Part shown: in pieces, positions 3,316 to 24,085 of the stretch
Numbering within the stretch: position 1 is the stretch's first letter
Layout of the letters: every line of letters begins with the position of its first letter
Source: Trueperaceae bacterium
Lineage (GTDB): Bacteria > Deinococcota > Deinococci > Deinococcales > Trueperaceae
Direction: 5' to 3'
NCBI GenBank assembly: GCA_034521815.1
Contig: JAXHLW010000011.1
Location: 1 to 64,000 of the forward strand
DNA length: 64,000 bases
Made by a program: the position numbers and the translations under genes
Notes under the pieces: generated by a model
The model's input: the letters and a program-made list of their open reading frames with translations, nothing else
What the model was told of the DNA's origin: nothing
Database searches by the model: none

Positions 3316-5041
3316 CAGAACAGGAACCAACGCTGGGCGAGAGGGAGCTCGGTGGCGGCAGGACTGGTCACCAGCTGGCCGTCGACGGTCACGCGGTACG
3401 TGTCGGGATCGACCTCGATGTCGGGTCGAGCGTCGTTGTGCACCATGTGCTCCTTGCGGACGCCGCGCGTTCCCCGGACCGCGAAGGCGCGACGTGCGAG
3501 GTTGCCCGGCAGACCGCCTTCGGCGAGCGACACGCCCGAGACGAAGTGAACGCAGGTGGAATCGGGGACGCGACCGTACGCTCCGAACATCGGCCTGTAC
3601 ACGACCGGGCTCGGCGTCGGAATCGAGCCGTTCGGATCGCCCATCACCGAAGCCACGGTGAAGCCGCCCTTGAGCACGAGGTCCGGCTTGGCACCGAACG
3701 AGGCGGGGCTCACAAGCACAGGTCGGCCAGCTTGCCGACCTCGACCGATCCGACGTGCTCGGAGATCCCGTGTGCGATCGCCGGATTGATCCCGATCTTG
3801 GCGACGTACCGCTTTGCCCGGACGTTGTCGCTGCGGGCGCTGTCGCCGGGAAGCGCGCCGCGTGCGCGTTTCATCGCGTGCGCCGTTTGCCACGTCCGAA
3901 GCACGACCTCGCCGACACGCCCCATCGCCTGCGAGTCGGAGCCCACCATGCTGATCGCCCCGATATCGGTGCAGAGCGTCTTCGGCGGCCACTGGTCCTC
4001 GGGCCGAATCCGCGACTCGGCGAACGCGACGTCCTCCGGGACGCGCGGACTGAGGTGATGACAGACCATCAGCATGTCGAGGTGCTCTTCGAGCGTGTTG
4101 ACGGTATACGGCATCGTCGGGTTGGTCGACGACGGCAGCACGTTGCCCTCTGCGACGACCCGCAGAATGTCCGGGGCGTGCCCGCCGCCAGCGCCTTCGG
4201 AGTGGTAGGTATGAATCGTCCGATCGCGAAACGCGGCGATGGTCGCCTGGACGAAGCCGGACTCGTTCAGAGTATCGGTGTGAATCGCGACCTGGACGTC
4301 GAAACGTTCTGCGACGGAGAGAGCCGTATCGATGGATGACGGCGTGGTACCCCAGTCCTCGTGGAGCTTGAGCCCTGACGCGCCAGCCCGAATCTGCGCC
4401 TCGAGCTCCTCGGGTCGCGACGCGTTGCCCTTGCCGAGGAACCCGAAGTTCAGCGGCATGCCCTCTGCCGCTTCCATCATCCGATGCAGGTTCCATGCAC
4501 CCGGGGTGGCCGTGGTCGCCTTGCTGCCTTCGACCGGGCCGGTCCCGCCGCCGATCATCGTGGTCACGCCGCTCGTCAGCGCCTCCCAGGCCTGCTGCGG
4601 GCTGACGAGAAGTGGATGTGGGCGTCGATCGCGCCGGCCGTCAAGATCTTCCCCTCGCGGGCAAGAATCTCGGTGCCGGGACCGATGGCGAGCTCGGGGT
4701 GCACGCCGTCCATGACGTCCGGGTTGCCGGCCTTGCCGATCGCCGCGATTCGGCCGTCACGAATCCCGACGTCCGCCTTCACGACGCCCCAATGGTCGAG
4801 GATCACCACGTTGGTGATCACCAGGTCGGGCGTCCCGTCCTCGCGCGCCCGCTGGCTCTGGCCCTGCCCGTCGCGAACGACCTTGCCGCCACCGAAGACG
4901 ACCTCGTCGCCGTAGATCGCGCCCCCTTCGTTCGCGGCGTCCCGTTCGAATCTCGACGATCAGGTCGGTATCGCCGAGGCGGACGCGGTCGCCGACGGTC
5001 GGGCCGAACAGCTCGGCGTCGGCGCGCTTGTCGATCCTCAC
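3315..5041 (-). CDS. ureC: Urease subunit alpha (frameshifted)
   Basis: [82 protein letters not shown]. Confidence 0.96.
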
Positions 5042-5762
5042 GACGCGTCCTTCTTCGCATCCGCGTCGAGCGCCGCCACGGGCCACGAGAACGCGTCCGA
5101 CACGGCCGAGACGCGTCGTCCTGGCGCTCGTCCAGAGAACCGCCGACGAGCGCACTCATCCCGTGCACGACGACGCTCGCCGCCGAACGCGACGAGGCGG
5201 ACGTCGCGGCTCTCGCCCGGCTCGACCCGGACCGCGGTCCCCGCCGGAACGTCGAGGCGCATGCCGGTACTGGGCCCGGCGATCGAACGCCAACGCGGCG
5301 TTGGCCTCGAACAGGTGCGCGCGCGATCCGACCTGGATCGGGCGGTCTCTCCGGTTCTCGACCCGGAGCTCGGTCGCCTGGCGGCCAGCGTTCAGCTCCA
5401 GCTCGCCGTCGTCGACGAGGATCTCGCCAGGCGTGAAACGAGCCTTGTCGGCTCGCTCGCCGCGGATCGGATCGTGGACCGTCACCAGCTTCGTTCCGTC
5501 GGGGAAGGTACCTTCGATTCTGGATCTCTCGAACCGTCTCGGCCACGCCTGGAAGCACGTCGTCCGCCATCAAGATCGTCGCGCCTAGATGCATCAGGTC
5601 CGCGACGCTTCGGCCGTCCCGAATCCCTTCGAGCAGCTCGGCCGTGATCAGCGCGACCGACTCTGGATGATTCAGTTGCAACCCGCGTGCGCGCCTACGG
5701 CGCGCCACGTCCGCAGCAACGTGGATCTGAAGCTTGTCGACTTCGCGTGGCGTGAGTCTCAT
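5038..5762 (-). CDS. ureAB: Fused urease gamma/beta subunit (frameshifted)
   Basis: [11 protein letters not shown]...GLQLNHPES (gamma); a single ORF runs from TVHDPI (end of gamma) into [17 protein letters not shown]...DRPIQVGS (beta); [15 protein letters not shown]. Confidence 0.9.
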
Positions 5763-6073
5763 GGGCCTCCTCGTGCGCCCGAGGGGCGGCTCGCGCGTGC
5801 CGGAGGAGGCTCGCCATCCCTCGATCGCGACTCGATTGCAGAACTTCACCGACCCAGTCGATCGCCGTGTGCACCGGACCGCATACGGTCGACCCATCGT
5901 CGTCGGATTTTTTACAGAGCCACTCGTCGCCAAGACCTCACCAGTTGATCGACATGATAGAGCGTGCAGTCGGCGCATTCCTCAGCTTACGCTTGGCCCA
6001 CGTGCACGATCCAGCCCCGGTCGCGGCGAAGGTCCGGGGCGGTGGCCCAGGACAGTGGCGACGAAGGCGCCCC

Positions 6074-6865
6074 TCACACCTCGCCCAGGTACGCCCTCTT
6101 CATCGCCTCGTTGTTCCGCAAGCTCCTGCGCCGTGCCGGAGAGGACGACCTCGCCGGTCTGCAGCACGTAGCCGCGATCGGCGACCTGAAAGGGCCACGT
6201 TGGCGTTCTGCTCGACGACGAACACGCTGATGCCCTCGTCGTTCACGGTCTTGATGATCTCGAAGATCTTCTCGACGAACAGCGGGGCGAGGCCCATCGA
6301 CGGCTCGTCCATCAAGATCAGCTTGGGGCGGCTCATCAGGGCGCGGCCCATCGCCAGCATCTGCTGCTCGCCGCCGGACATGGTGCCGCCCTGCTGACCG
6401 AGGCGCTCGCCGATGCGCGGGAAGAGCGTGACGACGTAGTCCATGTCCTCGCGTGATCGCCTTGCGATCGTTCCTGCAGGTAGGCGCCCATCTCGAGGTT
6501 CTCGCGCACGGTCATCTTCGGGAAGATGCGGCGGTTCTCCGGCACGACCGCCATGCCGCGCTCGATGCGCTCCGCGGTGGTCAGGGTGTCGGCTCGCTCG
6601 CCGCGGAAGTGCACCTCGCCCTTCCGAAACGCCCACGATGCCGAGGACCGTCTTCAGCGTCGTGCTCTTGCCGGAGGCGTTGCCACCGAGCAGGCAGACC
6701 ATCTCGCCGGGGTGGATCACCATGTCCACCTCGTGCAGCACGCCGGATCGGGCCGTAGTGCGTGGTGACGTTGCGCAGCTCGAGCAGCTTCTCCTTCGCG
6801 TTCGCCTCGGCGCTCCACTCGCGGGGGCGCTCCCCTCTTCGGCCGCGCGGCGCCGGGCACGTCAC
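6074..6865 (-). CDS. livF: LIV-family ABC transporter ATP-binding protein (LivF-like, frameshifted; start approximate)
   Basis: GGNASGKST Walker A, VPENRRIF, MSGGEQQMLAMGRALM, ILMDEPSMGL, VEQN; ends KRAYLGEV*. Confidence 0.88.
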
Positions 6866-7670
6866 CGGGCTTCTTGCCCTGTCCGCGCGCCTGCTTGCCG
6901 AGGTACGCCTCGAGCACCTTCGGGTCGTCGACGACCCGATCGTACGACCCTTCGGCGATCTTCACGCCGTAGTCGAGCACGATCACCCGGTCGCTGATAT
7001 CGCCCACGAGGTTCATCTTGTGCTCGACGAGCAGGATCGTGTAGCCGCCCTCGTCGCGCATGCGGCGGATGATGCTGCGTGATCTCGGTGGTCTCCTTAG
7101 GGTTCATCCCTGCACTGGGCTCGTCGAGCAGCAGCAGCTTCGCGCTCGGTCGCCATGGCGCGCGCCATCTCGGCGCGGCGCCGGTTGGCGTACGACAGTA
7201 CGGTAGACCGGCTGGTGCAGGCGGAAGCTCATCAGGCGCGGGCCGAAGAAGCCGAAGCTTCTCGAGCGCCGCTTCGTGCATCGCGGCGCTCCTGGCCGCG
7301 CGGTAGTCCGGCGTCCGCAGGACCGCCGTACAGCCACGGTCGAGCGCAGCTTGTGGTGCTGCGGGATCAGCACGTTGTCGAGCACCGAAAGGTTCGTGAA
7401 CAACCGCAGGTTCTGAAAGGTGCGGGCGATGCCGAGGTCGACGATGGCGTTCGGATTCTTGCCGGCGATCGAGCGGTCATCGAAGCGGATGTCGCCGTCG
7501 TCGATCTTGTAGACGCCGGTGATGAGGTTGAACAGCGTCGTCTTGCCGGCGCCGTTGGGGCCGATGACCGACACGATCTCGCCCTCGTTCACGTCGAAGG
7601 ACAGGCCGCTGATGGCCTGCAGTCCGCCGAACGCCTTGTCGACGCGGTTCACTTCCAGCATGGCCGCCAT
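6862..7670 (-). CDS. livG: LIV-family ABC transporter ATP-binding protein (LivG-like, frameshifted)
   Basis: GPNGAGKTTLFN, GIARTFQN, LLLDEPSAGMN, LVEHKM, VLEAYLG. Confidence 0.9.
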
Positions 7671-15317: not shown

Positions 15318-15761
15318 CTAGGGAGCACCCTGAATGTAGCTGCGGAGCTGGTCGATCAGGAACGCCTGCTCGGCGATGGTGGCCTTGACGACGTCGCCGA
15401 TCGACACGATTCCGATCAGCTCGCCGTCGCGCATGACGGGTAGGTGGCGAATGCGGAGCTCGGTCATGCGCTCCATGCAGTCCTGCATGGTCCGGTCCGG
15501 TTCGATGGTCACGACGTCGTGGCTCATCACCTCGTCGACGCGGGTCTCGCGCGATGCACGGCCCTTGAGGATCACCTTGCGGGCGTAGTCGCGCTCGGAG
15601 ACGATCCCGACCAGCTGCCCGTCCTCGAGCACGGGCAGCGCTCCCACGTCGTGCTGGGCCATCAGGGCGAGCGCGTCGTACACGCTGGCGTCCTTGGCGA
15701 CGGACCAGATCTGGCCCCCCTTCGACCGGAGCAGCTGACCTACCGTGGTCGTGCCTTCCAT
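15318..15761 (-). CDS. CBS-pair domain protein
   Basis: VGALPV, GIVSERDYARK, IRHLPV, GIVSIGDVVK. Confidence 0.93.
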   Translation of the reverse strand: MEGTTTVGQLLRSKGGQIWSVAKDASVYDALALMAQHDVGALPVLEDGQLVGIVSERDYARKVILKGRASRETRVDEVMSHDVVTIEPDRTMQDCMERMTELRIRHLPVMRDGELIGIVSIGDVVKATIAEQAFLIDQLRSYIQGAP

Positions 15762-15796
15762 GAGGTCTCCCTTCGGGCGTGGAATGGACCATGGTA

Positions 15797-15821
15797 GGGG
15801 CGCCCCGGCGAGGGGCGCCCC
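15797..15821. terminator. GC-rich hairpin downstream of the LysM lipoprotein gene
   Basis: ggggcgcccc-ggcga-ggggcgcccc. Confidence 0.5.
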
Positions 15822-15851
15822 GATCGAACCTGTGTACTCGCCTGGATCAGG

Positions 15852-18825
15852 TCACTCCGTGGCGGGCACCACCGGCTCGGCCGGCACCGTTCCAGATTCG
15901 AGCTGCTCTTCGCTGGGCACGATCAGCACCATGCCGGTGAAGATCAGGTTCGGATCGTCGATCAGGTTGCTGTTCGCCTCCAGGATGTCGGTCCAGCGGT
16001 TGCCGTTCCTGTAGAAGAACGTCGCGATGCTGGACAGAGAGTCGCCAGGCTGCACCGTGTAGATGCCCCGGGCATCGGTGAGGCGCGCGACGACGTTCTG
16101 CGTCGTGTTCAGCTCGGAACGGATCTGGGCCAGCTCGTCGCGTTGGGCCTGCGTGACGACCTCCAGGCCCTGCTGCTCCGCGAGCACCTCCGAAAGCCGT
16201 TCGGTGAGCTCGCCGGCCCTCTCCTGTGCGTTCTCGAGCGCGCTGGACGTCTCGCTCAGCTCGCTGCGAGCGGTCTCGGATACCTCTTCGACCGTGGACA
16301 GTCGAGCTTCGAGCGACTCTCGTTCCGACCGCACCGTCTCGAGCGACTCCAGAAGGGCGTCCCGCTCGGCCTCGAGCGCGGCACGCTCGTTGGACAGCGC
16401 CTCTTGCTCTGCCGCGAGGGTGTCTCGCTCGGCGGTCAGCGCGTCCCGCTCGGCCGCGAGTGCGTCCCGCTCGGAGGCGAGCGCATCGCGTTCGGCAGCG
16501 AGGCGGTCCCGCTCCGCGGCGGCGGCGTCGCGCTCGGCGACGATGTCGTCGCGCTCGGCGGTCAGTCGCTCGACCTCGTCTTGCGACGCGTCGCGATCGG
16601 CAGCGAGCTGCTCCAGCTGGCCCTCGACCTCGCTCAGTCGTGCGCGCGTCGACTCGAGCTCGTCCGTACGCGATGCCAGCTCGGCCGTGCGAGATTCGAG
16701 CTCCGTCGTCCTCGATGCGAGGTCGGCTTCGACAGCTGCGAGCGACTCCTGGACGGTCGAGAGATTGGCCCGCGCCTGTGCGAGCTCGACCTCGGTCACG
16801 GTCAGGTCCGTCGCGATCTGTTCGCGGGCGGCCTGCACCGCGGCCAGCTCCGTGCTGACGTCCTGTGCCCGGGCCGCCGCCTCGTCAGCTCGCGACGCGG
16901 CTTGCTCGCGAGCGTTCTCGGCTCGCGCCAAACGTGCTTCCAGCCCCGAGGCCTCCTCTTGCGCCGCCGTCAGCTCCTCACGTAGCGACGCCACCTCCGC
17001 AGCAGCCGTGTCCCGCTCGGCGCGAACCTCGCTCAGCGTGCCTTCGACGCTCGCGCGCTCCTGTTCTGCAGCAGCGAGTCGTTCCTCGAGGGCAGTCACG
17101 TCCTCCTGCATCGCCGCTCAGCTCGCGCCTCCGTCGACAGCACAGCTCCTCACGCACCGCGCTCAGATCGGCCAGCGCAACGTCACGCTCCGACTGAACG
17201 ACGGCGAGCTCCTCCGCCGCGGTCGCCCGCTCGGCCTCGACCTCCGCCACGCGGGCCTCGAGCCCCGACGCCGCCTCTTGCGCCGACGCCAGCTCCTCAC
17301 GAAGCGACGCCAGGTCCGCAGCAGCCGTGTCCCGCTCGGCGCGAACCTCGCTCAGCGTGCCTTCGACGCTCGCGCGCTCCTGTTCTGCAGCAGCGAGTCG
17401 TTCCTCGAGGGCAGCGACCTCCTCCTGCATCGCCGTCAGCTCGCCCTCCGTCGCAGCACGCTCCTCACGCACCGCGCTCAGATCGGCCAGCGCGACGTCA
17501 CGCTCCGACTGAACGACGGCGAGCTCCTCCGCCGCGGCGGCCCGCTCGGCCTCGACCTCCGCCACGCGATCCTCGAGCCCCGACGCCATCTCCTGCGTCG
17601 ACGCGAGCTCGTCGCGTGCCGTAGCCAGCTCTTCCTGTGCCGTAGCCAGCTCTTCCTGCGCCGAAACGAGGTCGCCCTCCGTCGATGCGAGCTCTTCACG
17701 CACCGCGCTCAGATCGGCCAGCGCAACGTCACGCTCCGACTGAACGACGGCGAGCTCCTCCGCCGCGGCGGCCCGCTCGGCCTCGACCTCCGCCACGCGG
17801 GCCTCGAGCCCCGACGCCGCCTCTTGCGCCGACGCCAGCTCCTCACGAAGCGACGCCAGCTCCGCAGCAGCCGTGTCCCGCTCGGCACGAACCTCGCTCA
17901 GCGTGCTTTCGAGGCTGGCGCGCTCCTGTTCTGCAGCAGCGAGCTGCTCCTCCAGCGCCGTCACGTTCTCCTGAACCGAGCTCAGGTCCGACTCCGTCGA
18001 CGCCAGCTCCTCACGCACCGCGCTCAGATCGGCCAGCGCGACGTCACGCTCCGACTGAACGACGGCAAGCTCCTCCGCCGCGGCGGCCCGCTCGGCCTCG
18101 ACCTCCGCCACGCGGGCCTCGAGCCCCGACGCCGCCTCCTGCGCGGACGCCAGCTCCTCACGTAGCGACGCCAGCTGCGCAGCCGTCTCGTCTTGCGCGG
18201 CCCGCGCCTGGCTCAGGAGCGACGCGACGTTCTCGCGAGCGTTCAGGGCGCGCATCAGTCGGGCGTCCAGCTCGGTCGCACGTTCGCTGGTCGACGCCAG
18301 CTGGGCTGCGAGCTCGTCGCGCTCGGTCTGCAGTGCGCCGAGCGCCTGCTCGGTTTCACTCGCGCGCGCCTCGACCTGTTCGCGAGCGTTCGTCGCACGC
18401 GCGACGCGCGCTTCGAGCGACGTGATCTCGGCTTGGGCGTCGGTCAGCTCCGATTCGAGCTGCTGGACCCGGGTCTGCGCGTCGGACAGCGACTGATCGG
18501 CGGTCGCCACCGCGTTCTCGAGGCCGGCGTTCTCTTCCTCGAGCGAGGCGACTCGCTCCTGCAGCGCCTGCTGTCCGGAGCTCGTCTCGTCGAGCTGCGC
18601 TTGGAGCTCGTCGATCTGGGCGTTCGCGGCTTCGAGATCGGTCTGTGCCGTCTCGGCCTGGCTTTGGGCCTGCTCGAGCTCGGACTCGAGCGTGGAGACC
18701 TGGCCGGTCAGGGCCTCGTTCTCCGCAGTCAGATCCTGCTCGACCTGGCTCGGGCCGCAAGCGGCCAACGTGGCGAGCGCCAGAACCGTGATCGCGGCTC
18801 CGGCTAGGGTCCGTGGAATCGTCAT
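15852..18825 (-). CDS. Giant coiled-coil lipoprotein with C-terminal LysM domain (~990 aa; frameshift near 17110-17145)
   Basis: Lipobox LAAC-G and GGAGG RBS; ~890 aa E/A/L/R heptad region; C-terminal YTVQPGDSLSSIA..FY.NGNRW..I.EAN...IDDPNLIFTGMVLIVP LysM. Confidence 0.85.
16960..18175. repeat. Long near-identical tandem duplications inside the coiled coil (periods 315, 231, 315 bp)
   Basis: Anchor tcacgcaccgcgctcagatcggccagcgc recurs at 17150, 17465, 17696 and 18011. Confidence 0.92.
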
Positions 18826-18965
18826 AGCGGCACCTCCTGGTGTCGGGACGGGCGGACGGGCATACGAAGTCGAACGCCCCTAGCATAGACGAAGCGACGC
18901 CCCGGTCCGTGGCGGCGCATGGATTCCGGACCGCTCGCACCGGTCCCAGCCGTACGATGGCCGGT

Positions 18966-19304
18966 ATGCGACGTCTACGGTTTCTGAGCGACGATCCGGA
19001 CGAAGGCCCGGTCCGCACCCTGTTCGATCTCGCCCCCCGCGACGGCGCCGCGCTGCGCGTCGGATCGGTTCGATTGGCGCCCGGTCAGCGCGTGCCGGAG
19101 GAGGGCGCCTCTTGCCACGGCGTGGACGAGGCGTCGCTGATCGTGTCCGGATCGCTGTCTGGCGAGAGCGGGGGCGAGGCGTTCGCGATCGCGGCCGGCG
19201 ACGCGACCCTGATCCCCGCGGGCGAGGCGCACTGGGCGGTGGCGGGCGACGGCGGCGCCGAGATCTTCTGGGCCTGGTTCGGTGACGTGGCCGGTGAGGG
19301 CTGA
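18966..19304 (+). CDS. Cupin domain protein
   Basis: SCHGVDEASLIVSG and LIPAGEAHW cupin motifs; TACGAT 7 nt before the ATG. Confidence 0.85.
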   Translation: MRRLRFLSDDPDEGPVRTLFDLAPRDGAALRVGSVRLAPGQRVPEEGASCHGVDEASLIVSGSLSGESGGEAFAIAAGDATLIPAGEAHWAVAGDGGAEIFWAWFGDVAGEG

Positions 19305-19306
19305 GC

Positions 19307-20891
19307 TCACGACCGCCGGGCGCCAGCGGCGGGCAGAGCCAAGCGCCAGGCGCGCAGCCGCTCCAGACGGAGCGGGCCGCGGGTGGTCACGCCCCACCAG
19401 GCGTCCGAGCGGCGGTCGTACAAGCGTCCCGTGAACGCGACCCGTCGGTCGACGAACAGCTCCAGCAGGCTCCCGTCGAGAAGCGCGCGCACCTCGATCT
19501 CGTCCGGCAGGTCCAGCGGGAGCGTCATTCGCTGCAGCACCGGGCTGGCCGGGTTCCGATGCGGGATGAGGCGCCGAAGCGTCAGGTCCCCGTGCGAGCG
19601 GTCGAGCTCCACCCGATAGCCGCCCGCGACCTCGGCGTCGGCCTGGAGGAGAAGCCCGAGGCGACCGTCCGGCCCCCAGCGCACGCGGAAGCACGTCTCG
19701 AACCGCTGCGGCTGTCGCCCCAGCCGAAGCAGCGCGAGCTCTTCCCCGCCCGCGAGCTCCCCGCGGATCGCGGCCCCGTCGTGGCGCATCTCGACCTGCC
19801 ACGATCCCAGCGCTCCGGCGAGATCGGGCGTCAGCGGCAGCGCCTCGGCGCGAAGCTGGTCGAGCTCGGCCACCGGCCGCACTGCCGGCTCGGCGTCCGG
19901 GCCCAGCACCAGCTCGCGCGGGAACGCCATCGCGCCGCCCCAGGTCCACGGGCTGCCGTCGTCGGGCTCGCCCTCGGGCGTGCCCGCCGGCGGCTCGCCC
20001 AGCACCGACGCCTCGGGAGGGTCGAGGGTGTCGGACTGCGCTGGCGTCGTGCCAGGGGCGATCCGGTCGAACACGAAGGCGAACAGGAGCCTGCGCCGAC
20101 CGTGGATCGCAGACTTCGCGGCGTACCACCGGAAATCGTCCAGCTGGGCCGCGGCCGGCCTGAGGTACGGTCCGCCCGGATCGTCCGCGATGCGGACCTG
20201 AACGCCGTAGTCCGAGTACAACAGCACGTACCGGTCGTCCAGCTCGACGACTTCGGGGCACTCGCAGCGATGCACGTCCGCGGGGTGGTGCAGGACGCCG
20301 TCCACGCGCCAGCTTCGCAGGTCGTCCGACAGCAGCCGCGCCACGCAGGCGCGCAGCGCTTTCGGGCCGCGGTCCAGCTCGGCGGTGAGCACCATCTCGA
20401 AGCCGCCGTCCGGCGTGCGCCTGAGCTGCGGATCCCGCCAGGCGGCCGAGGGGCCCGTCACGAACGGCGCGACGGGCACGACCAGCGGGTTCGCCGGATC
20501 CTTTCGCCACGTGACCAGGTCGTCGCTCTCGGCGTGACACACGGTCTGCAGGCCACCGTTCGGGGCTCCGACGCCGGTGTAGAACGCGTGGAACCGTCCT
20601 TCGTGGCGGATCACGCAGCCCGTCCAGCAGCCGATGCGCGTCCGGTCCGTCGCCGTCCGGGACCAATGCGTCGGGTAGCGCCGTCCAGCGCAGCAGGTCG
20701 TCGCTGACGACGTGCGCCCAGCGCATCGTCTCGAACGCGTCGGCGCGGGGCGAGTTCTGGAAGAACACGTGCGTTCGGCCCTCGTGCACGATCGGCTTGG
20801 GATCGCCGAAGCGTCCGTGCCTGGGCACGTGATGCAGCGCGACGAGCGGGCGTAGCTCGTCGGCGTCGCGATCGTGCCCGGCGCGCGTCAC
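19307..20891 (-). CDS. Glycoside hydrolase family 32-like (beta-fructofuranosidase/levanase-type; frameshift near 20635)
   Basis: FGDPKP (nucleophile Asp), WAHVVSDDL, CWTGC, WRDP, CECP; C-terminal LDGSLLELFVD beta-sandwich. Confidence 0.85.
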
Positions 20892-20892
20892 G

Positions 20893-21210
20893 TCACCCCT
20901 TGACGCCGCTCGACGCGATCGATTGCACGAACCAGCGGTTGAACAGCAGGTAGACGATGAGAACGGGGACGGTGATCATGGCCGCGAACGCCATGATCTG
21001 ACCCCACTCGCGCGGCTGCTGACCGAAGAACTGCTGCATCGCGACGGTGAGGGGCCGAACCTCTTCGCTCCGAGCGACCATGACCGGCCAGAGAAGCTGG
21101 CCCCAGTGGCGCAGGAACAGCAGGATCGTGACGGTCGCGATGATGGGCCGCGACAGTGGCAGCACGATCGACCAGTAGATCCGCAGTCGACTGGCGCCGT
21201 CGACGATCGC
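20893..21210 (-). pseudogene. C-terminal fragment of a carbohydrate ABC permease (MalG-type)
   Basis: IVDGASRLRIYWSIVLPLSRP (end of EAA loop), LWP, FVQSIASSGVKG; no N-terminal part upstream. Confidence 0.8.
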
Positions 21211-22332: not shown

Positions 22333-23863
22333 TCAGCGGTCCAGCCAGGTGGTCCGGAGACCGAGGTAGCTGGTGTTCGGGAAGTGCTCGAAGCCACGCA
22401 CGTCCGGGCGGAGCGCCTCGAACTGCGAGGAGTGGAACAGGAACACGTGCGGCGCCTGGTCCAGGATGAGCTGCTGCGCCTCGGCGTAGATCTCGCGACG
22501 GCGCTCCTGGTCGGACACCTGCCGGCCCTCCTCGAGCAGGGCGTCGAGCTCCGGGTTCGAGTAGTTCCCGAGGTTGCCGCCGTTATCGGTGTAGAACACG
22601 TTGAACAGGAAGTCGTCGGGGTCGCTCTGCCCGGACTCGCCCAGGATGGTGGCCGCGTAGTCGCCCTCGAGCACCTTCGGCAGGTAGATGCTCCAGTCCT
22701 CCGCGACGATGTTCGTCGCGATCCCGATCTCGGCCAGGTTGGCCTGGACGACCTCGGCCGGCGTCCGCAGGAAGTCGTACGTGCTGGTCACGTACAGGTC
22801 GTACTCGAAGCCGTCCGGGTAGTCGGAGGCGGCCAACGCCTCGCGCGCGGCTTCGACGTCGCGCCCGACGTAGGGGCTGTCGCTCACGCCGTAGTAGTTC
22901 GACGACGGGATCGTGGTGCCGGTCGCGGGAACCCCGCCGGTTCCGAACAGGGCCAGGTCGACGACGGCCTGCTCGTCGATCGCGTACGACATCGCGCGAC
23001 GCACGTTCACGTCGTCGAACGGCGCCCGATCGACGTTGAAGTAGATGCTTCGGAAGTTCGCCGACAGGCCGCCGACGACGTCGACGTTCGGATCCGCCCG
23101 GAGCACCTCGACGTCCGCGGCCGGCACGTACTCGATGAAGTCGACGTTGCCGGTCGCGATCGCGGTCGTGCGCGCCGTGGGATCGGGGTAGAACACGAAC
23201 TCGATTCCGTCGAGGTAGGGCAGCGCGTTCCCGGCGTCGTCGGCGCCCCAGAAGTCGTCGTTCCGCTCGAGGATCATGCGGGTCTGCGGCAGGTACTCGG
23301 TGAAGCGGAACGGGCCAGTTCCGATGACGTTCTCCTGCAGGTCGCCGTACTCCTCGACCGCCGCCTGACTGACGATCACGTTCAAGCTGGCGGCCAGCTT
23401 GGACAGCAGCGGCGAGAACGGCTCGGACAGGTTCATCACCACGGTGCGGTCGTCGGGCGCGGAGATCTCCTCGACGACGGCGAAGTCGTCGCCGCGCGGC
23501 GAAGCGATCTCGGGATCGCCGATGCGCAGAATCGAGATACACCACGTCGGACGCCGTGAGCGGGGTGCCGTCGTGGAACGTGACGCCCTCGCGCAGCGTG
23601 AACGTCCAGGTCAGGCCGTCGTCGGACGCGGTCCACGACTCGGCCAGGCCGGGCACGATCTGCAGGCTGGAATCGAACATCACCAGCGTGTCGTAGACGT
23701 TCTCGAGCATGTTGCGGGTCGAGGTGGCGTTCGTGATGTGCGGATCGAGCCCGACGGGATCGGTCTGCATGCCGACCCGCAGGACGCCACCCATCGTGGG
23801 CTGGGCCAGCGCCAGCGTGGCCAGCGCCGCGGCGGCGAGAAGAACGAGGAAACGACGAATCAT
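22333..23863 (-). CDS. Peptide/nickel ABC substrate-binding protein, family 5 (frameshift near 23540)
   Basis: Signal peptide, LDPH, VYDTLV, PGLAESW, LREGVTFHDGTPLTASDV, GTGPF, VRRAMSYAID. Confidence 0.92.
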
Positions 23864-24085
23864 GAGGTACCTCCGGTGGTCGACGAAACGGACGAGCGGA
23901 ACGGACGCGAGGAACGGACGAGCGGCGACGAATGGCGGGACGAATGGAGGGACGAATGGAGAGCGGCGTGAGGGTCAAGAATACGCCGCGAGGGCCGCGA
24001 GGGGGCGGAACGCGGGCGGACAGGAGGGCAGACAAGAGGGCCGAGAGCCGTCGACGCCGGATCGGCGCGTGCCAGGCGAACGCGA

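Follow-up and report, generated by a model that had tools for sequence, protein, structure and literature searches.

An apparently split gene in a Trueperaceae genome for a predicted lipid-anchored long coiled coil with a C-terminal LysM domain

Results

Two overlapping frames probably form one gene

The window analysed here comprises positions 1-64,000 of contig JAXHLW010000011.1, a stretch of 64,000 nucleotides from a metagenome-assembled genome (MAG) of a Trueperaceae bacterium (Deinococcota; GCA_034521815.1). On the minus strand, a first-pass annotation had read the interval 15852-18825 as one giant lipoprotein. This interval is 2974 nt long, which leaves 1 on division by 3. In the assembly it is not a single open reading frame but a pair of overlapping ones (615 aa and 421 aa) that meet near 17112-17145. 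The features that bear on the integrity of the gene are as follows.

18833-18838, minus strand: Shine-Dalgarno sequence AGGAGG read from the sequence, 7 nt 5′ of the ATG start codon at 18825
16978-18825, minus strand: frame A (P0001), N-terminal open reading frame, 615 aa
15852-17117, minus strand: frame B (P0002), C-terminal open reading frame, 421 aa
17112-17145, minus strand: frame break, with extra bases at plus-strand positions 17117, 17127, 17137 and 17144, net +1
16950-18129, minus strand: tandem array with a period of 319 nt and 93% match, every unit length being a multiple of 7 aa
17815-18129, minus strand: tandem unit 1, 105 aa
17584-17814, minus strand: tandem unit 2, 77 aa
17269-17583, minus strand: tandem unit 3, 105 aa
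16950-17268, minus strand: tandem unit 4, 105 aa, which bridges the frame break and thereby connects both open reading frames

Scans of 15600-19100 for a sigma-70 promoter and for an intrinsic terminator found neither. Frame A leaves the register past ...DLSAVREEL, its last 54 aa being rich in Cys, Arg and Gly, and a TGA lies immediately upstream of frame B. Taken at face value, the break would reflect a genuine frameshift, either in a decaying pseudogene or in a locus with two products, a lipoprotein rod devoid of LysM and a leaderless coiled coil carrying it. The break is indeed present in the assembly as given, the protein atlas lists the C-terminal frame separately (starting at its residue 42), and a truncated ABC permease remnant nearby indicates that some real gene decay is possible in the region. 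However, four separate 1-base insertions inside 28 nt would make an odd mutational history, and such a pattern is typical of two repeat variants merged into one consensus. All four surplus bases sit within copy 4 of the 105-aa tandem unit, which begins in frame A and finishes in frame B; units 1-3 do not carry them. They are also absent from all four metagenome (Logan) contigs spanning the break (two from run X1, one each from X2 and X6), these being assembled contigs that end inside the repeat and are not assignable to unit 3 rather than unit 4. The sequence from a further run, X9, stops short of the site. In X1, which is possibly the source sample, depth is 4.4 and 6.3 for the two variant contigs and 5.1 for the unique flanks, consistent with two in-frame copies. 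The sequence occurs in saline sediments.

Two neighbouring genes show similar single-base breaks. The SBP_bac_5 gene matches profile positions 1-42 and 43-365 in two different frames separated by one surplus base, and the Glyco_hydro_32N gene matches positions 1-62 and 64-214 in two frames. Moreover, the N- and C-terminal modules co-occur in single intact open reading frames of relatives, a homologue in another long-read MAG is likewise split, both halves have high coding GC3 and perfect heptad phase, and frame B is devoid of a signal peptide of its own. A genuine frameshift is thus improbable, and the interval probably represents one gene of ~2970 nt (~989 aa) split by an error in the assembly consensus. 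The mature product would be 967 aa long after lipoprotein processing. The stop near 17 kb, which the first-pass annotation had named as fatal to its own reading, is seen in the assembly but finds no support in the contigs that cover it; likewise, the ~890-aa coiled coil that it described exists once the break is read through and not in the assembly as given. With the same proviso its overall architecture of lipid anchor, long heptad rod and LysM is correct, and it is intact in the single open reading frames of relatives.

The N-terminus carries a predicted lipid anchor

18757-18825, minus strand: signal peptide with lipobox L-A-A-C and lipidation predicted at Cys23; the family motif GPSQVEQDLTAEN comes after it

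The N-terminal sequence MTIPRTLAGAAITVLALATLAAC reads as a signal peptide that ends in the lipobox reported earlier. The positively charged n-region, the hydrophobic h-region and a lipobox of the form [LVI][ASTVI][GAS]C are all present (MTIPR-TLAGAAITVLALATLAA-C). The Cys is invariant in the 18 sequences of an alignment of this region. Among homologues, 29 of 32 labelled as Deinococcota have a lipobox, and in 17 of 24 labelled as Pseudomonadota it is replaced by a transmembrane helix that looks uncleaved. The motif CGPSxxExxLxxxN is common to family members and its conserved Asn falls on heptad position a. The product is therefore predicted to be lipid-modified at Cys23.

The rod, with the break read through, fits one uninterrupted heptad register

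17146-18756, minus strand: N-terminal part of the rod (part A, frame A), in-frame continuous heptad coiled coil
16062-17111, minus strand: C-terminal part of the rod (part B, frame B), in the heptad phase of frame A if unit 4 is 105 aa
16357-16565, minus strand: array whose 21-nt (7-aa) repeats follow the pattern AERDxLx, from repeat analysis
18379-18408, minus strand: NARE motif copy 1 (RVARATNARE), P0001 residue 140
18232-18261, minus strand: NARE motif copy 2, P0001 residue 189
16905-16934, minus strand: NARE motif copy 3, P0002 residue 62

Beyond the CGP that follows the lipobox, the rod contains no Pro, no aromatic residue and no Lys, and its net charge is -87 in part A and -46 in part B. 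A single fixed heptad register scores 214.1 over the 539 aa of part A, compared to 22.9 ± 10.0 (maximum 64.4) in 500 shuffles, and 132.8 over the 350 aa of part B, compared to 17.9 ± 7.6. The heptad periodicity thus goes far beyond chance and no helix breakers interrupt it; one unbroken register fits ~886 rod residues. Coiled coils rise ~0.148 nm per residue, so the fully extended rod would measure roughly 130 nm. The acidic, proline-free heptad rod of the first-pass annotation is borne out, and its length estimate follows from these figures.

The core is mixed, with Leu (36), Arg (16 of 77), Val (12) and Asn (2) at position a and Ala (27 of 77), Leu (22) and Val (18) at position d. The presence of polar residues at a is suggestive of a dimer. 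In part A, whose four repeat units are not mutually independent, we counted 16 attractive and 8 repulsive g-e′ pairs, compared to 9.8 and 16.0 in shuffles; the corresponding signal in part B is not significant. Opposite-charge i,i+4 pairs are scarce (9 of 527 and 13 of 342), and this scarcity together with the clear a/d seam led us to reject a single α-helix domain. Matches to SMC/Rad50-like models were also rejected: TIGR02168 (98.8 bits vs a cut-off of 729), TIGR02169 (95.4 bits vs 567) and others cover coiled-coil regions only.

The three-fold recurrence of R[VL]xRAxNARE noticed earlier is real. The suggestion that it marks stutters did not hold: the motif sits in unbroken register, with its Asn on position f and its third Arg on position a, and therefore marks no stutter. 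It occurs in only 2 of 86 family open reading frames and is specific to this lineage.

A single LysM domain ends the protein

16062-16184, minus strand: pre-LysM helix and ARLT-x-ARG linker, the family-conserved end of the rod
15915-16061, minus strand: LysM domain of the YgaU/Kbp-like subtype (PF01476, NF008399, 7pvc)
15852-15914, minus strand: C-terminal tail (20 aa), acidic and rich in Pro, with the stop codon; the tail is present in the closest relatives only

P0002 residues 353-401 match the whole of PF01476 (profile positions 1-43 of 43, E 3.9e-10, 40.0 bits vs a cut-off of 20.9), in agreement with the single C-terminal LysM first proposed. NF008399 matches the domain at E 8.4e-13, below the model cut-off. 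The closest solved chain is that of Kbp (7pvc, E 1.5e-14), and PRK11198 matches P0002 residues 342-403. AlphaFold2 models of the LysM part are poor, having been run without an alignment. From this assignment the domain is predicted to bind peptidoglycan. That the LysM lies nearest to Kbp/YgaU counts against taking peptidoglycan binding for granted. Profile searches of both halves found no LytM, CHAP or other catalytic or regulatory domain, no SLH domain and no outer-membrane barrel.

The gene belongs to a family with rods of variable length

The C-terminal module and the N-terminal anchor place the protein in a family whose members are anchored by a lipobox or a transmembrane segment and continue with a coiled coil that differs in length, a conserved ARLTGARG linker and a LysM domain. 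We gathered 68 complete non-redundant members, from Trueperaceae and from several Pseudomonadota MAGs; in an alignment of 20 sequences, identity to the C-terminal module of the window is 39-78%. None of the Pfam and NCBIfam models matches the family above its cut-off, and the literature searched describes no protein that joins a LysM to a coiled coil and to an anchor of the lipoprotein or transmembrane type. As far as these models and this literature go, the family is undescribed. One complete single-contig genome (G114) carries an open frame of 538 aa.

A homologue search seeded with the last 103 aa of an intact family member returned 6 matches, one with an uninformative name, and cluster names are equally uninformative (1 of 10 clusters is called 'YgaU'). 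Matches in the protein atlas all score below 0.9 and serve as leads only. Foldseek with the P0026 model gave no match at E ≤ 0.001. Across 95 loci we found no family-wide partner gene; synteny exists at the level of lineages only (FAA hydrolase, Zn-ADH, P-type ATPase). A phage spanin, tail or tape-measure protein was rejected in view of the metabolic genes on either side and the lack of any phage context.

Rods range from 162 to 1624 aa across the family, with medians of 305 aa in Pseudomonadota and 500 aa in Deinococcota. The protein of the window, first described as a giant, is one long member among others, and the rod of its sister species is 1074 aa long. Within the same genus rods vary 3.3-fold (334 to 1086 aa), and 6.5-fold among those labelled as Deinococcota. 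The rod is thus not a fixed ruler, and the range within the genus speaks against an envelope spacer of constant length. Variation on this scale also weakens any role in spacing.

In the two closest pairs of orthologues of unequal length, each of the 12 indels spans a multiple of 7 aa, and their distribution over the rod is asymmetric. In more distant pairs such multiples account for 0 of 6 indels (78% identity) and 2 of 7 (76% identity). Only the two ends of the rod are conserved across the family; the middle is hypervariable in sequence and in length.

Extended rod or hairpin

The first-pass annotation had set a predicted fold-back against its own tether. AlphaFold2, run on single-chain P0002, does fold the C-terminal half back, into a confidently predicted antiparallel hairpin of two helices (H2-173 and H179-349, mean pLDDT 79), yet it places the turn exactly in the middle of an arbitrary fragment. 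We therefore considered a molecule with a turn in mid-rod, whose intramolecular antiparallel coiled coil would reduce the rod to ~65 nm and might pair further into a four-helix bundle, as in chemoreceptors. The LysM would then lie beside the lipid anchor with the conserved end helices packed together, and the protein would be a projection or scaffold instead of an end-to-end tether. Several features agree with it: the predicted helices are 172 and 171 aa long on either side of a 5-residue loop, with pLDDT ≥ 90 for 140 residues; the best Foldseek matches are the antiparallel arms of Rad50 (7zr1), a chemoreceptor (2ch7) and SMC (5nnv, TMt 0.70); large residues at a and small ones at d are complementary in antiparallel a-d′ packing; and conservation is confined to the two rod ends.

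However, the predicted turn (DRDAS, residues 174-178) has neither Gly nor Pro, and a turn at the exact midpoint of a fragment that starts at the frame break is what a chain modelled without a partner is expected to give. The family has no conserved hinge or tip, and six rods of 486-1074 aa show zero Pro and zero register breaks. One-sided insertions between orthologues (e.g. 112 aa at 0.65-0.82 of the rod) would re-pair a whole arm, the conserved Asn at position a would miss its like partner, and a LysM kept next to the membrane would be in a poor position for contact with the wall. A hairpin is thus rather unlikely, and we favour an extended rod.

Discussion

A candidate tie between inner membrane and peptidoglycan

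The explanation that we favour, while giving it somewhat less than an even chance in its full form, is a lipid-anchored parallel coiled coil that ties the inner membrane to peptidoglycan. The exported product would be lipid-modified at Cys23 and probably retained in the inner membrane. A parallel, in-register homo-oligomeric coiled coil would start 5-8 residues past the lipid anchor and run for ~127 uninterrupted heptads, roughly 130 nm, to the conserved ARLTxARG linker and a LysM that would hold peptidoglycan non-covalently. A long stiff rod of this kind would tie membrane to wall. Since length is free to change between close relatives in whole heptads, we infer a leash or strut, not a perpendicular ruler of fixed length. 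It might lie obliquely or along the wall within the very wide periplasm of Deinococcota, which in D. radiodurans measures 121 ± 4 nm (PMC9388160).

An inner-membrane anchor is suggested by the transmembrane helices of homologues, by the lack of any LolA (PF03548) match in the 41 Trueperaceae genomes searched (39 of them ≥ 90% complete and ≤ 5% contaminated), and by the rarity of the Lol system, practically absent from Terrabacteria according to a preprint (10.1101/2021.05.31.446380).

Comparison with known envelope proteins

The comparison drawn earlier with Lpp, SlpA and Omp-α is apt as an analogy. Like the protein described here, Lpp of E. coli has a lipidated Cys followed almost immediately by a parallel coiled coil with an Ala-rich core, whose far end is on peptidoglycan. 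Lpp differs in having 58 aa, in being trimeric and Lol-sorted to the outer membrane, and in its covalent attachment through a C-terminal Lys; the present protein has a rod of ~886 aa, a predicted non-covalent LysM attachment, no Lys, and belongs to a lineage in which no LolA was found. The length of Lpp is known to set envelope spacing (cf. PMC8824477).

The Lpp topology of lipid anchor, coiled coil and C-terminal wall attachment raises the question of an anchor in the inner leaflet of the outer membrane, from which the rod would run down to or through the thick peptidoglycan alongside SlpA. Gly at +2 is not an E. coli-type lipoprotein retention signal, and SLH-domain proteins encoded in the same genome (C1:246-248 kb) indicate that outer-membrane connectors are present. 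Residues 11-68 weakly match the Lpp/OprI alanine-zipper model NF040598 (E 0.0012), but the score of 19.3 bits falls short of the cut-off of 43. The last residues of the protein are ...PATE, without a terminal Lys, and both rod halves are Lys-free. The lack of a LolA match and the transmembrane anchor of many homologues also point away from such a location, and in D. radiodurans only ~30 nm separate the outer membrane from peptidoglycan (PMC9388160). We give an outer-membrane anchor a small chance.

SlpA/OmpM of Deinococcus-Thermus (SlpA being from the same phylum) and Omp-α of Thermotoga similarly place a long periplasmic coil between a membrane anchor and a wall-binding domain. The SlpA stalk measures 28 nm within the 121-nm periplasm (PMC9388160). 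In SlpA, an N-terminal SLH domain binds a pyruvylated polymer, the stalk is trimeric and the C-terminus forms a 30-stranded barrel in the outer membrane, whereas the present protein has the reverse polarity, with an N-terminal lipid anchor, a LysM and a rod ~4-5 times longer.

NlpD and DipM also combine a lipobox with LysM in a diderm periplasm; they differ in the presence of LytM, to which their LysM is N-terminal, and in the absence of a long coiled coil, LysM being the sole globular domain of the present protein. This arrangement bears on a role as a septal or remodelling scaffold, in which the coil would recruit or regulate wall enzymes or division proteins in the manner of EnvC, PcsB, NlpD or DipM and LysM would target nascent or septal glycan strands. 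The long coiled coils of EnvC and PcsB are reported to regulate hydrolases, and conservation of the N-terminal 35 residues and of the pre-LysM helix exceeds the needs of a plain spacer. Against such a role, the profile searches revealed no catalytic or regulatory domain, none of the 95 loci has a conserved neighbour of the ftsEX or amidase type, and the middle of the rod is hypervariable. The chance of a septal scaffold is accordingly slim.

Two further proteins are related to the tie that we favour. Kbp/YgaU, the BON-LysM protein of E. coli, provides the closest solved LysM and differs in its size of 149 aa, its BON domain and the absence of anchor and coiled coil; PRK11198, whose cut-off is 134, reaches 49 bits here. 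A diderm precedent for a link between inner membrane and wall is OutB of Dickeya dadantii (PMC12274547), a covalently attached scaffold of the type 2 secretion system with no LysM and no long coiled coil.

Implications

This case illustrates how repeat-rich genes can be cut apart in long-read MAGs, with each piece then catalogued as a protein of its own. In these rods nature also provides very long coiled coils that are free of stutters.

Known envelope ties (Lpp, Pal, OmpA, SlpA/OmpM) join the outer membrane to the wall. To our knowledge, the positioning of the inner membrane relative to the wall is largely unexplained, especially in the wide periplasm of Deinococcota. A wider proposal, which we regard as speculative and improbable as it stands, is that the family represents an unrecognised class of inner membrane-peptidoglycan tethers in diderms, in which a parallel coiled coil in strict heptad phase would keep the wall away from the cytoplasmic membrane. 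Rod length would track periplasm size, from the lower median in Pseudomonadota through the higher one in Deinococcota to the longest rods of this genus. If this were true, the 890-1090 aa members of this genus would be struts or leashes spanning a Deinococcus-type periplasm of ~120 nm. With its three-part design, its occurrence in at least two phyla and the whole-heptad differences between close relatives, the family would be a testable candidate for such a tie.

Reading frames and domain organization

The first-pass annotation described one giant lipoprotein. The interval 15852–18825 (−) measures 2974 nt, which leaves a remainder of 1 on division by three, and it holds two overlapping open frames instead of one:

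16978–18825 (−): frame A, P0001, 615 aa, leader and part A of the rod
15852–17117 (−): frame B, P0002, 421 aa from stop to stop, part B of the rod and LysM

AGGAGG lies 7 nt upstream of the frame A ATG, and the N-terminus of P0001, MTIPRTLAGAAITVLALATLAAC, is a textbook lipoprotein leader with the lipobox L-A-A-C and Cys23. Beyond ...DLSAVREEL, frame A continues for 54 out-of-frame residues rich in Cys, Arg and Gly. A TGA precedes frame B, whose C-terminal end is a LysM domain (PF01476, E 3.9e-10, 40 bits, cut-off 20.9). The remaining Pfam and NCBIfam matches, to SMC, Rad50, tropomyosin and similar models, were all far under their cut-offs and were rejected as compositional coiled-coil hits. 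Read through, the gene would encode 989 aa (561 + 9 + 419). The description was largely right, provided that the two frames are joined across what is probably an artefactual break.

The gene stands alone. Downstream are a CBS-domain gene, a Zn-dependent alcohol dehydrogenase and a FAA hydrolase, and upstream is a cupin gene in divergent orientation; this synteny is common only to members of the genus and of lineages close to it.

The frame break

Within the gene lies a tandem array of four units, 105, 77, 105 and 105 aa long (TRF: 93% match at a period of 319 nt). Unit 4 starts in frame A and finishes in frame B, so a single array runs through both frames. It differs from units 1, 2 and 3 in having four additional single bases, spread over 28 nt (+ strand 17117, 17127, 17137 and 17144) and absent from all three, and the local string resembles a gapped union of two unit variants. 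We infer that a consensus caller probably merged polymorphic repeats at this point.

Four metagenome runs belonging to four studies (X1, X2, X6 and X9) supplied Logan contigs for comparison with 16600–17280. The break site is covered by two contigs of X1 and one each of X2 and X6, the X9 contigs stopping short of it. All four extra bases are missing from these four contigs, which are short, end inside the repeat and, because they are like unit 3 at two of its three nearby diagnostic positions, are assignable to neither unit 3 nor unit 4. In X1, possibly the sample behind the assembly, depth is 4.4 and 6.3 for the two variant contigs and 5.1 for the unique flank, compatible with two in-frame copies. 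The stop near 17 kb, which if real would make this two genes, is present in the assembly but is not supported by the four covering contigs. The gene is probably intact in the organism.

The assembly carries the same fault in two other genes:

22336–23974 (−): SBP_bac_5 gene, peptide/nickel-type solute-binding protein
19310–20975 (−): GH32 gene

In the former, one extra base near 23535 places profile positions 1–42 and 43–365 in different frames; the latter is split near 20644–20652, with profile positions 1–62 and 64–214 in two frames. The homologue in another long-read Trueperaceae MAG (L020, CAWIUY010000024.1, ~4923–7613) is split too, its N-terminal module lying on a 690-aa frame and its LysM module on an overlapping 380-aa frame.

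Two further loci were noted. An ABC permease domain at 20896–21210 (−) consists of the C-terminal part only (BPD_transp_1 profile positions 87–182 of 184), with no N-terminal part visible in the frame; this could be what is left of a decayed gene or a further break. Elsewhere in the same genome (G000:C1:246664–248248, −), two SLH-domain matches 1.4 kb apart, L042 and L043, lie on open frames of 397 and 618 aa; they may represent two separate SLH proteins or a single SlpA-like gene with another frameshift.

Composition and register of the rod

A composition count found no Pro, aromatic residue or Lys from the CGP after the lipobox to the LysM domain. The rod is mostly Ala, Glu, Leu and Arg, with a net charge of −87 in part A and −46 in part B. 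With zero lysine in its ~886 residues (15855–18756, −), Arg supplies all of the positive charge. A register tracker with a moderate jump penalty found no internal register break in either half, and a single fixed register scored 214.1 over 539 aa in part A (shuffles 22.9 ± 10.0) and 132.8 over 350 aa in part B (shuffles 17.9 ± 7.6). The two halves would share one phase, provided that unit 4 is as long as unit 3. Position a is occupied by L36, R16, V12, A7 and N2 (Arg at ~21% of a positions), and position d by A27, L22, V18 and T8. Opposite-charge i,i+4 pairs number 9/527 in part A and 13/342 in part B, a scarcity that ruled out a single alpha-helix domain.

Coiled coils rise 0.148 nm per residue. 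With the frame break read through, the ~886 residues would form ~127 heptads and the rod would extend to roughly 130 nm, in line with the earlier estimates of ~890 aa and roughly 130 nm. The motif R[VL]xRAxNARE does occur three times, as first reported. The suggested role as a stutter or register node did not hold: its Asn falls at position f and its third Arg at position a in an unbroken register, and only 2 of the 86 non-redundant ORFs of the family, both from the closest relatives, contain the motif in its strict form. We regard it as a relic of internal duplication.

Rod length and indels across the family

Of these 86 ORFs with the conserved C-terminal module, 68 were complete with a recognisable anchor and were kept; the other 18 either ran off the end of a contig or lacked an anchor.

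Rod length and anchor type in 68 family members (group labels from record titles and kinship among related genomes)
Deinococcota: n = 32; rod 248–1624 aa; median 500; lipobox 29
Pseudomonadota: n = 24; rod 162–710 aa; median 305; lipobox 7, TM or signal-anchor helix 17
Unlabelled: n = 12; rod 211–638 aa; median 484.5; lipobox 12

Complete rods within the genus measure 334, 365, 405, 547 and 1086 aa, so that the rod in the window (~886 aa), though long, is surpassed within the genus, and there is no conserved length. One congeneric orthologue (L034, G005:C9) has, on a 1200-aa open frame, a 1074-aa rod of ~153 heptads, exceeding that of the window. Six rods of 486–1074 aa, that of G005 among them, have neither Pro nor a register break; the family median of the longest unbroken stretch is 195.5 aa.

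In the two closest length-differing orthologue pairs (83% and 81% identity), each of the 12 indels, between 7 and 112 aa in size, is an exact multiple of 7 aa, and their positions are scattered asymmetrically over the rod. The window's repeat units (105, 77 and 7 aa) are also multiples of 7. Among more distant pairs, at identities where low-complexity alignment is unreliable, such indels number 0/6 (78%), 2/7 (76%), 1/7 (53%) and 6/15 (42%), and against a much shorter relative 4/9 (56%) and 1/16 (59%). We read the heptad-multiple indels as selection for an unbroken heptad phase along the entire rod.

Orientation and oligomer state

One-sided heptad-multiple insertions are harmless only if residues pair with their own copy, which would speak for a parallel, in-register homo-oligomer. 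An Asn conserved across the family at a core a position near the N-terminus would favour the same arrangement; Arg and Asn at position a are typical of dimers. A further point in favour would be that part A, whose four repeat units are not independent of one another, has more attractive g–e′ pairs than its shuffles (16, against 9.8) and fewer repulsive ones (8, against 16.0). No such excess was found in part B.

The main structural rival to a membrane-to-wall tie is a hairpin in which the rod folds back on itself, a prediction that had been named as evidence against the tether. AlphaFold2 does fold the single chain of P0002 into a confident antiparallel hairpin (H2–173 and H179–349, pLDDT 79, pTM 0.47), with Rad50, SMC and chemoreceptor arms as top Foldseek matches. 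The turn (DRDAS), though, is formed without a helix breaker and lies exactly in the middle of a fragment whose start is merely the frame break, so we regard the hairpin as what would be expected of a lone chain. We consider fold-back the less likely arrangement. The single-chain model of the short homologue P0026 has four helices with short breaks between them and no significant Foldseek match.

Distribution of the family

The genome comprises 13 contigs (2.63 Mb, completeness 83.5%), and its relatives bear Trueperaceae titles. P0002 had matches in 28 of 41 related genomes, including 10/10 of the genus. The last 110 aa matched 97 of 301 genomes of the phylum, one unpublished genome (G258) included, at E ≤ 1e-6; by family, the counts were 77/102 (f1), 5/112 (f2), 4/14 (f3), 10/62 (f4) and 0/10 (f5). 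Outside f1, the matches are to the LysM part only, in frames of 240–400 aa, with the exception of genome G030.

Intact relatives carry, in one ORF, a leader, the mature N-terminus CGPSQ-x-E-x-x-L-x-x-x-N, a rod variable in both sequence and length, and a strongly conserved C-terminal module, ...AQNEVARLTGARGIYTVQPGDSLSSIA-FFYRNGNRW.... A profile of the module matched at least 149 cluster representatives with E ≤ 1e-30, a set that includes numerous unrelated multi-LysM proteins. Among the 150 listed, the 49 examined, picked for a near end-to-end module match at their own C-terminus, are unnamed and of 200–612 aa. No Pfam or NCBIfam model scored above cut-off for the family.

In a scan of species genomes, the family turned up in Trueperaceae and further Deinococcota MAGs and, beyond this phylum, in Burkholderiales, Sedimenticola, Ectothiorhodospiraceae, Alphaproteobacteria MAGs and Candidatus Binatia. 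Trueperaceae and Burkholderiales members share 61–65% identity over the C-terminal 70 aa (ARLTGARG linker and LysM). Elsewhere the proteins cannot be aligned, and a transmembrane helix replaces the lipobox (loci L028–L033 and L044–L121, from Burkholderiales, Sedimenticola and Alphaproteobacteria MAGs). The pattern suggests strong constraint or inter-phylum gene transfer.

Proposed placement in the envelope

SLH-domain proteins are the known type of outer membrane–wall connector in the phylum, and they occur elsewhere in this genome. LolA (PF03548) was found in none of the 41 Trueperaceae genomes searched, 39 of them with completeness of 90% or more and contamination of 5% or less, the set including G258 and the present genome (G000); the same search was positive in D. 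radiodurans and E. coli. A preprint that used this Pfam model describes Terrabacteria as practically devoid of Lol (10.1101/2021.05.31.446380). These results and the existence of transmembrane-anchored homologues make an anchor in the inner membrane the simplest reading.

A tie between membrane and wall is the best-supported mechanism, although we propose it tentatively, and it would more likely start at the inner than at the outer membrane. A 130-nm rod is not absurd in this phylum, since the periplasm of D. radiodurans measures 121 ± 4 nm, the wall beginning 30 nm below the outer membrane (PMC9388160). The idea of a fixed envelope spacer is not borne out by rods that vary from 334 to 1086 aa within the genus; the rod would more likely act as a leash or strut than as a ruler.

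The literature searched yielded no published description of a protein combining anchor, coiled coil and LysM. The protein in the window is one of the longer members of a genuine but unnamed family with this clear design, and would be a variant on the known coiled-coil envelope connectors.
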